Shown one piece after another: positions 25,457 to 63,860 of a stretch of 64,000 nucleotides of DNA (the first letter of the stretch is position 1; the number at the start of each line of letters is the position of its first letter). This DNA comes from Octopus vulgaris (taxonomy: Eukaryota), in assembly GCA_951406725.2 (NCBI GenBank), contig OX597834.1:11904001-11968000 (forward strand), written 5' to 3'. The notes below the pieces were generated by a model. That model saw only the letters and a program-made list of their open reading frames with translations. It was not told where the DNA came from and made no database searches. Made by a program: the position numbers and the translations under genes.

Positions 25457-25853
25457 CTAGCAGTAATCGCCCGGCGTTGCTCGGGTTTGTAAGGGAAATA
25501 ACTATATAAGCATTTTTAGAGATGTAAAGCCATAATAGCCATCTCAATATGGTTAACCACAAAGGGGGGGGGGTTACTGTAATTTTTTACGTTCTGAGAT
25601 TTAATAATAAATTTTTAGAGAGTTACATCCTTATATATATCCCAAAAATGCATTAAAAATGGAAAAAAATTGATGGTAAATTTTTTTTAAATCGTAGACT
25701 CATCGTAGACGCGCGCTAATACCCAGAAGGACTCGATATGAATCACGACTATAAGATACCCAGTTTTGGTTAAACTGCACCGCAAAATGTGGGAGTAGTT
25801 AGGAATCTAAATCGTAGAAGACAGACACACAACTTCTCTTTTATATATAAAGA
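25457..25853 (-). mobile_element. Non-autonomous Helitron (397 bp)
   Basis: Minus strand A|TCTTTATATATAAAAG...cccgagcaacgccggg (hairpin) cgattactg CTAG|T: 5' TC, 3' hairpin plus CTAG, inserted between A and T with no TSD. Confidence 0.88.
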
Positions 25854-26534
25854 TAAAGAGAAGAATTCAGCGAAGTAACAATGTGACGGTTTTCCCAATA
25901 GACACGCGACTATAAATACGAAAGGATAAAGAATAGTAACCAGACCAAGCTAGGAATTGAATATTTTGAAATAAACTGCGACGTATCAACAGAATGAAAG
26001 ACCTGCTCTTTTGAGTAACTGATGTAGGATCCAGGACAACAGTGTTTTAGAGTTGTACCATTACACAATCAATCAAACTCCACTTTTAAATATTGAAAGA
26101 GAACATTTTATATAGCATGGAGCTATACCGGAATATCTAGCTTACAAAGTGCAATAGAGAAGAAGGAATACTACTTTGAAAATGCGACCAAATAATGAGA
26201 AAAATATCATACTAACCAACAGAATACACATTGGAATCGAAAGAAAATGATTAAAGAAACGAAGTAAATAATATATGCAGAGTAAAACTTTCTGAAAAGA
26301 CTATTTCAGTGTTATTTGCAGGAGAAATTATCTGAATACAAAACTAAAATATACGAGAAGTATATTGAGTACATAATAGTACAGAGTAAATTGACATCAA
26401 GCTAATTTTTAGCACAAAAATGCAAAGGTATTAACTAGAATATATATATATATATATATATTTATAATGAGATTAGCTCGTATACGAGTGGGTATATATT
26501 TGTAAAAAATGAAGTTCGAAAATGCTGCTATAGT

Positions 26535-26586
<52 letters not shown>

Positions 26587-26588
<2 letters not shown>

Positions 26589-26880
26589 CGTAAAGTGTAC
26601 TAGCCATCTGAATGTGGCTAGCCACTGGGGGTGGATGTTACTGACGCTTTTAGCCCCAGGAGATCGACGTCTCCAGCTGGCCTTAGACACAATTTCAGTG
26701 CCCTTGTGTTATTTGCAAAGGGAGGTCATCCTCCCTCGAAAACCTAAGTGATACATACGGACTATAGTTTCAAGGTTTTTGCCTCTCGTCAACACATGGT
26801 AAACACCGGTTTTCGATGGCTAGTACACTTTACGTTGTCGAGCGGTTACTGTTTATATCTCGTTCGGAGATTTATTAATG

Positions 26881-26883
<3 letters not shown>
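26587..26883 (-). mobile_element. (TA)n-embedded element with 22-bp inverted repeat and hammerhead
   Basis: aacgtaaagtgtactagccatc (26587-26608) and its exact reverse complement (26815-26836); pure (TA)n on both sides; homologous to 51192-51457. Confidence 0.8.
26754..26798 (-). ncRNA. Type I hammerhead ribozyme motif (GUC triplet)
   Basis: catgtg|TTGACGA|gagg caaaaa cctt|GAAA|ctatag|TC|cgtatg; deviates from consensus by C3U and G-U wobbles only. Confidence 0.72.
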
Positions 26884-26938
<55 letters not shown>

Positions 26939-28195
26939 AATTAAATTAGAGATAAAACCACTATTAGGCAAATCAAACAGTGAAAAACATAAACCAAAAC
27001 ATAAAAATAATTAATATAATATACATAATATATAAAATATAAAAATTTAAATTATTTAAATTCAAAATTAAAATTATTAATTTATATTTATAAATTTTTA
27101 TATTTTTTATATATATATATTTTTTATTAAATATATATAACTATCAAAAAGTATTAAAAACGTTTAATATAAGATAAAAAGTATGTATCATATTGAGGAT
27201 AAAAATGAACGTGAGAAACAGTAAAAAATGTTGGGAGCTTTGTTCATCATAGCCGGGACATAATTTCACAAAACATTAAAGACGCAATAATTCCATAATA
27301 CAAAGAAATTCAAAGATACTATAATGACACAGAGATATGGCATCAAATATTGACTAAATATCCAGTGTAATGAGCCGTTTAACTACATCATTTCCACATG
27401 CATAGTCTTTGCCAACCGCTTGTAAATCCACTGAGACGATAAAGTTGAGAGGTACTTCTGTTAAGAAATGTGACAAGAATATAACGGATGAGAGAAAGCA
27501 GACAAGAGCGTGTTTCTTCTAAATGAACATATACATGAAATGAGATATATCAACTGCCTGGCTGTATTCATGTAGTACATCTGGGGGAAGATTTATAGGT
27601 AAAATATTTAGGGCTAATGATAAAGAAATGCCTTGACAATGACTGTTTTAAGATATGTTTCTTTATTAGCTACAACATTACGTCCTCTTCTGCTCAATAA
27701 ATAATTGGAGAATCATTTAAAATTATTTATCACACTTCAAGAAGTGTAGAATGTAGGACCTGAAAATACAAACAGTAATAAAAATAGCTAAAACAATATG
27801 ATAAAAAGAAATGACCAAAATATAACAAATATAAGGGCTCGCAATGATTCAATAAAAATAGCCCTTTTAGGCAGAACTTGTGCAATATGTATTCAGTTCA
27901 GCCGCGTAGATCAAATATTAAAGCATCTTTACACAACACATAGAATAACCAACGAATGAAACAGAATACCTCACAAAGCAAATACGTTATCGAAGCGCTG
28001 CTATATACAAACAGAAAACCTCAAACAGTAAATACGCTGGAGAAGCAAGACTAAATACAAACACATGCTGTTCACAATAAACAACTAACAGTACAAAACG
28101 TAATCATAATAAACACCCTACATTCTAGACAGAAAAAAGAACCCCACAAACGCATTCTACATGTTTGCCAAATAATGATATTATATTACTACAGA

Positions 28196-63577: not shown

Positions 63578-63860
<283 letters not shown>

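Follow-up and report, generated by a model that had tools for sequence, protein, structure and literature searches.

The element at 26588-26883 of the window, by which we mean the whole 64-kb stretch of octopus DNA that was analysed (GC 33.9%), is best explained as a twin-arm insertion of a non-coding hammerhead retrozyme of ~352 nt, which a Penelope-type enzyme likely copied into a (TA)n tract by reverse transcription, and the lone copy is probably inert; from the comparisons of related sequences described below, we give this reading a probability of roughly 0.8. The 254-nt core of the element has 71 matches of 93-100% identity in its own 2.8-Gb genome, and these come from 40 scored candidates out of at least 2345 first-look candidates. 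Read on the hammerhead strand, the unit of this family starts with ATCGAAAACC, carries the hammerhead at positions 20-64, and reaches ...CUUUACGUU at position 232, after which a 47-nt tail, GUCGAGCGG...UUAAUGCU, extends up to position 279. At locus L019, a 73-nt spacer follows the tail in tandem copies and results in a 352-nt period, and more tandem arrays of the family have spacings of 353-359 nt. The GC content of the unit is 44%, and the longest ATG frame in a unit trimer has 46 aa. The window element is one insertion of this high-copy, non-coding family, and it consists itself of a monomer and a partial inverted arm, while the family has tandem arrays. Its features are the following:

26540-26587, no strand: (TA)24 microsatellite, left half of the target tract
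26588-26818, minus strand: main arm, positions 1-232 of the ~352-nt retrozyme unit
26588-26609 and 26815-26836: 22-bp inverted repeat
26720-26735, minus strand: second hairpin of the unit, GGGAGG-AUGA-CCUCCC
26736-26816, minus strand: whole hammerhead domain (predicted fold; within helix I, the inner and the middle part covary)
26754-26798, minus strand: minimal type-I hammerhead, 45 nt
26798-26793, minus strand: helix I, 5' strand, catgtg (CAUGUG)
26792-26786, minus strand: core TTGACGA (UUGACGA), with U3 at 26792 and G8 at 26787
26785-26782, minus strand: helix II, 5' strand, gagg
26781-26776, minus strand: helix II loop, caaaaa
26775-26772, minus strand: helix II, 3' strand, cctt
26771-26768, minus strand: GAAA
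26767-26762, minus strand: helix III, ctatag, palindrome ACUAUAGU
26761-26760, minus strand: TC, with C17 at 26760
between 26760 and 26759, minus strand: predicted cleavage site
26759-26754, minus strand: helix I, 3' strand, cgtatg (CGUAUG)
26815-26883, plus strand: inverted, 5'-truncated second arm, unit positions ~210-279
26884-26936, no strand: (TA)n microsatellite, right half of the target tract; (TA)27 spans 26883-26936

The main arm has ATCGAAAACC at its start and ...CTTTACGTT at its end, where it adjoins (TA)n; its 3' end is of the '232' type, so that it lacks the 47-nt tail, and it is 97% identical to a unit from L019. The second arm is composed of the last 22 nt of the unit body and the 47-nt tail GTCGAGCGG...TTAATGCT (26837-26883), and its 3' end also adjoins (TA)n. 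The two arms are joined 5'-to-5' with a microhomology of 3-4 nt (GATG, 26815-26818). A first-pass annotation of this DNA had described a hammerhead whose departures from the canonical form are all transitions that leave G-U pairs, a second strong hairpin, and a location inside TA repeats. These observations hold: the letters on the minus strand at 26754-26798 are exactly as they had been noted, there are four such departures (U3-G8, G10.1-U11.1, G1.2-U2.2, and U1.3-G2.3), the hairpin gggagg-tcat-cctccc was found at 26720-26735 and is retained as GGGAAGG..CUUCCC in a sister family (family D, see below), and the element lies between (TA)24 and (TA)27. The 22-bp inverted repeat named in the same annotation is present as well, but it is no transposon end; it corresponds to unit positions ~210-232, which both arms contain, and marks the start of the inverted, 5'-truncated second arm. 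Elsewhere in the window, two further fragments were recognized. The stretch at 51192-51424 is an older, hammerhead-less fragment of the retrozyme superfamily, nearest to family D with 82-85% identity, and it again consists of two arms in 5'-to-5' orientation (minus strand 51259-51192, plus strand 51265-51424), and 25522-25587 holds a fragment of 50-60 nt from the 3' part of a unit of the B or D type, with 80-85% identity. The window also contains 36 (TA)n runs of at least 12 units, the longest with 82 units at 63684-63847, so that potential target tracts for such elements are very dense.

The layout of the window copy recurs in the family. In a survey of 28 distinct family loci with 40 arms, the 3' ends fall at position ~232 in 23 arms, at ~279 in 14, and elsewhere in only three, and the 5' starts are scattered along the unit, or the arm is longer than one unit (up to 1041 nt). 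Arm pairs joined 5'-to-5' were found at 12 loci, nine of which combine one ~232 end with one ~279 end, and TA repeats flank 21 of the 37 arms that have one of the two regular ends. Such a pattern is known from Penelope-like elements, for which the described insertion properties include heavy 5' truncation, partial tandems, a second, inverted copy that adjoins the 5' end and is itself 5'-truncated, a short tail confined to one end, and a bias for (TA)n (Craig et al., 2021, PMC8557442), and all features of this footprint are present in the window copy. None of the 40 arms begins at the predicted cleavage site and many read through it, and the template must therefore have been uncut or religated, which fits a circle or a multimer; cleavage is not required by these data. 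Three of the 40 arms (L001, L012, and L024) start exactly at unit position 1, where the long hammerhead hairpin has its foot, and have no spacer upstream; this may be a weakly preferred stop or start, with numbers too small to tell.

Penelope-like elements are abundant in the same genome. We scored 150 of 6136 candidates for GIY-YIG domains, and 148 of them matched, many with open frames of 781 aa; one Penelope-like element that was checked has an RVT_1 domain followed by a C-terminal GIY-YIG domain. When 30 sampled GIY-YIG loci with 1.5-kb flanks were compared by blastn (E<=1e-3), no similarity to the units of families A, B, or D was detected, and the pattern CTGANGA...GAAAC...GTH gave nothing in these loci and flanks but one unrelated match. 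The 3' region of one Penelope-like element has its own repeats and nothing that resembles the retrozyme unit. In one case (L109:1900-2400, on contig C16 of G000), five to six direct repeats with a unit of ~60-90 nt, containing AUUGGUCAAAA...UGAUGACGUCC, lie 3' of an open RT/GIY-YIG frame.

The hammerhead belongs to a larger group of homologous units in this genome. The lineage of the window element is termed A here. The older sister lineage B, found through a diverged copy beside one locus, has 62 matches (from 2138 candidates) and is 82-83% identical to A. A canonical-core pattern that kept the helix III frame matched the genome 1536 times, versus nine times for a reversed control, and from these matches we obtained the C lineages, which have a CUGCAG helix III, and family D, whose 353-nt unit is 74% identical to A over 312 nt. 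The core pair between positions 3 and 8 differs between these groups: it is U3-G8 in A, U3-A8 in B, and C3-G8 in C and D. Lineage B has the core UUGACAA in 99 of the first 100 listed of 173 matches, together with CCUC in helix II, and family D reads CUGACGA...CCUC.

In the predicted fold, a long helix I of three parts encloses the core and helix II, with an outer part of 9 bp (UCGAAAACC/GGUUUUCGA), a middle part of 4-5 bp (GGUG/UCAC), and an inner part of 6 bp. In this build, the 6-bp helix I carries an internal loop and is extended outwards; helix II has 4 bp, and helix III, palindromic at its centre, has 2-3 bp. The canonical metazoan type-I hammerhead has been described in the same way and is expected to act as a dimer (PMC4209133; PMC7229834). 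The window copy, like nearly all copies of the family, has the conserved core elements UGACGA, GAAA, A15.1-U16.1, and C17; a Watson-Crick C3-G8 pair is absent from the window copy, in which U3-G8 can form a wobble only. When two molecules were folded together, B and D, as well as the majority form of A, each gave a double hammerhead joined by an intermolecular helix III of 8 bp; the window copy gave no such double hammerhead. In searches with Rfam models, the window copy matched no family at the gathering score in a scan of the whole window, no hammerhead model was reported for 26500-26950 at E<=10, and RF00163 (Hammerhead_1) left the loci of lineages A, B, and C unreported at E<=1. The only matches in the window scans were to microRNA models on the TA repeats and were taken as low-complexity artefacts. 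Family D scores 32.2 bits with RF00163, for which the gathering cut-off is 34.

Covariation was analysed in 68 distinct hammerhead segments from homologous lineages of this one genome, which are related copies, so that the counts do not represent independent events. Paired cells amount to 93.6%, versus a mean of 87.3% after shuffling (none of 500 shuffles was as high) and 22-49% when the partner strand was slid. Both sides have changed in 12 of the 21 pairs, including four of six in the inner and four of six in the middle part of helix I, and two of four in helix II. Examples are pair 1.5/2.5 of helix I (A-U in 36, G-C in 30 segments), pair 1.4/2.4 (U-A 27, U-G 27, C-G 10), and pair 10.2/11.2 of helix II (A-U 57, G-C 8). 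At the palindrome centre of helix III, G-C occurs 31 times, A-U 25 times, C-G seven times, and other combinations five times, so that both partners vary here; the outer three pairs of this helix had been fixed by the search pattern and are uninformative. The 3-8 core pair is U-A in 27, U-G in 21, and C-G in 20 segments, and unpaired in none of the 68, under a pattern that admitted only Y at position 3 and only R at position 8. In the middle part of helix I, lineage A has a U-U mismatch (23 unpaired cells). Taken together, these comparisons indicate that the hammerhead fold is real by descent, even though the lone window copy proves nothing on its own.

This covariation decides against a chance match in AT-rich repeat DNA. 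If the window copy were viewed in isolation, this would be an understandable suspicion, as the motif is short, departs from the consensus at four points, and finds no Rfam hammerhead match. However, helices I and II, the centre of helix III, and the 3-8 pair all covary in homologous lineages, the canonical-core pattern is found in vast excess over its control, and family D comes close to the RF00163 cut-off. The motif is hence more than chance, because the family as a whole covaries, and we consider a coincidence highly improbable. We also give very little credence to the idea that the element is a MITE, or another DNA transposon with terminal inverted repeats, that targets TA and contains the hammerhead string incidentally, as one could suspect from a perfect 22-bp inverted repeat around ~205 bp, all inside (TA)n. 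The right-hand repeat is absent in many copies, or replaced by inverted arms of 6 to >900 nt, copies are 5'-truncated at scattered points or exceed one unit, and the homology of full copies stops at unit position 232 or 279 without a shared pair of terminal repeats. The same terminal repeats are thus not found at both ends of family copies, which excludes this type of element, and an incidental hammerhead would not covary across lineages.

The first-pass annotation regarded the window hammerhead as a slightly decayed copy of a functional one and predicted that a family consensus would restore CTGACGA and cctc, with catacg and cgtatg in helix I. The motif does descend from a genuine, structurally conserved type-I hammerhead, as judged from the covariation, and catacg/cgtatg is indeed the majority form of the sub-lineage to which the window copy belongs, but the expected core and cctc failed for the family: genome-wide, 325 exact lineage-A hammerheads have TTGACGA and only six have CTGACGA, and most have CCTT. 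U3-G8 and G10.1-U11.1 are, by these numbers, lineage traits of the source copies, not decay of the window copy, in which the only deviation shared with just a few others is U2.2 (CAUGUG, where other copies have CAUGCG or CAUACG). The predicted combination CTGACGA-gagg...cctc does occur, namely in sister family D. We also considered the six CTGACGA copies as survivors of the ancestral canonical form and rejected this, as they constitute 1.8% of lineage A, a frequency that any single-site change would roughly reach in copies diverged by 2-4%; five of them cluster weakly in the tree. This tree was calculated from the part of the unit outside the hammerhead by a quick search on 38 of 90 rows, with a midpoint root and several unresolved forks. 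In it, A forms a clade (support 100%) that sits within a grade of CUGCAG lineages, with B and C as its neighbours; D falls on the opposite side of the midpoint root. Lineage A is a separate clade, younger than its sister families and characterized by a CUAUAG helix III, U3-G8, and G10.1-U11.1, and its placement, with the midpoint root, makes C3-G8 the ancestral state. As G8 sits in a CpG, its change to A is an easy step.

It is possible, although we would not give it even odds, that the lineage-A hammerhead has lost its ability to cut and persists as a relic, that the family spreads because the Penelope-type enzyme still recognises read-through or multimeric transcripts of its tandem copies, and that U3-G8 and G10.1-U11.1 are tolerated losses. 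G10.1-U11.1 alters the best-conserved stem pair and U3-G8 the core pair, and these two weakening changes have become fixed in the youngest lineage (325 versus six copies). Single C3 mutants (C3U) are much slower. Single core changes usually reduce hammerhead activity strongly (PMC3088659). The U-U mismatch in the middle of helix I, the arms that cross the cleavage site and never begin there (0 of 40), and the lack of an Rfam match point in the same direction, and Naiads, which are Penelope-like elements, have been described to proliferate without canonical hammerheads (PMC8557442). On the other hand, the majority forms of A and B differ at seven paired positions in the 45-nt motif, all seven of these differences keep a standard pair, and the other ten conserved core positions are the same in A and B despite a unit divergence of ~17%. 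Pair-keeping changes around an untouched core argue for selection on the fold in the source copies. Furthermore, position 3 is paired with position 8 in every one of the 68 segments within the limits of the search pattern, the helix III palindrome was kept through a double change, and the A majority still folds as a double hammerhead. Our tentative alternative, likewise short of an even chance, is that a U3-G8 wobble in the catalytic core is functional in lineage A, the youngest and most prolific of the superfamily. If so, one genome would hold C3-G8, U3-G8, and U3-A8 cores, each in a lineage that proliferated, and either the wobble core would cleave well enough in a dimeric, tertiary-stabilised context, or the spread would tolerate very slow cleavage. 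Natural hammerheads with the U3-A8 covariation have been reported, and their cores are active in vitro (Perreault et al., 2011, PMC3088659; PMC4209133). Lineage B exactly matches this known covariation, and lineage A represents the half-step U3-G8; our literature searches gave no description of a natural family-wide U3-G8 core.

The retrozyme reading places the window family in a known class, the animal non-LTR retrozymes, which have been described from coral, mussel, and axolotl (Cervera and de la Pena, 2020, PMC7229834), and it is no new kind of element. As in the retrozymes of that account, the unit is short, non-coding, and tandemly arranged (150-450 bp there, with 330/350 in axolotl, and ~352 here), has one type-I hammerhead and a GC content below 45% (44% here), occurs in high copy number, and has a short palindromic helix III that implies dimeric action. 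The octopus family differs from what is described there by U3-G8 in place of the usual C3-G8; the insertion anatomy, with its twin arms, its two fixed 3' ends, and its placement in (TA)n, is clearer here than in the account of PMC7229834. The homologous family D shares the same hammerhead build. In a limited literature search, we found no paper that names cephalopod retrozymes. With Penelope-like elements, the family shares the insertion footprint, including the microsatellite targets, and the palindromic helix III of the hammerhead, but its unit has no ORF, its tail has 47 nt compared to the 30-40 nt described, and its hammerhead has the full-helix 'canonical metazoan' build and not the minimal form. 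In Schistosoma, Penelope-like hammerheads show the U3-A8 covariation (Cervera and de la Pena, 2014, PMC4209133), and a descent from Penelope-like elements has been proposed for vertebrate retrozymes (Li, Clavereau and Pollet, 2026, bioRxiv 10.64898/2026.07.22.740005). Both animal retrozymes and their connection with Penelope-like elements had been known before, which makes the element ordinary in itself; its sole unusual feature is a wobble core pair that is fixed in a young, prolific lineage.

For the formation of the window copy, we propose that tandem copies would be transcribed, that neighbouring hammerheads would pair via their palindromic helix III and cut after GUC, and that the 352-nt monomer would be circularised by a host ligase. 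A Penelope-type reverse transcriptase/GIY-YIG endonuclease would then prime on both nicked strands of a (TA)n site, and the circle or multimer would be copied by this enzyme in a twin-primed manner. The resulting window copy has a single hammerhead with no partner nearby and two tandem G-U pairs in helix I; it is therefore probably inert and likely a dead-on-arrival product rather than a source copy. With respect to RNA, a sequence look-up across runs returned none on record as RNA that contains the family sequence; contigs of four runs, whose RNA status is guessed, cover the unit in pieces, and one spans the unit junction, with the limits that contigs cannot reveal ends, strand, or circles and that depth peaks on the segments most conserved between families. 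The clean and countable twin-arm footprint with two fixed 3' ends constrains models of the enzymes that copy small RNAs, and the natural series C3-G8, U3-G8, and U3-A8 lets the activity of the wobble intermediate be tested directly at the bench, which bears on the question of whether the spread of retrozymes needs ribozyme activity at all.

Some further observations concern the related hammerheads. A tandem array of at least 10 lineage-B units with a 355-357-nt period, each with a U3-A8 hammerhead, lies at G000 C4:13620933-13624165 and could be the source locus of B. Several canonical-core sister lineages (for example at L074, L093, and L095) deviate in the best-conserved stem pair of hammerheads, at the helix II base, where they have either C10.1 opposite A11.1 (CGGG...CCCA, CAGG...CCUA) or U10.1 opposite U11.1 (UAGG...CCUU). 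Finally, another hammerhead family scores above the RF00163 cut-off, with 34-36 bits (L032, L033, and L036, at G000 C7:15930010, C1:98507175, and C15:53489332); it has an insertion of ~60 nt in helix II and the palindromic helix III ACGAUCGU, which is followed by U17.
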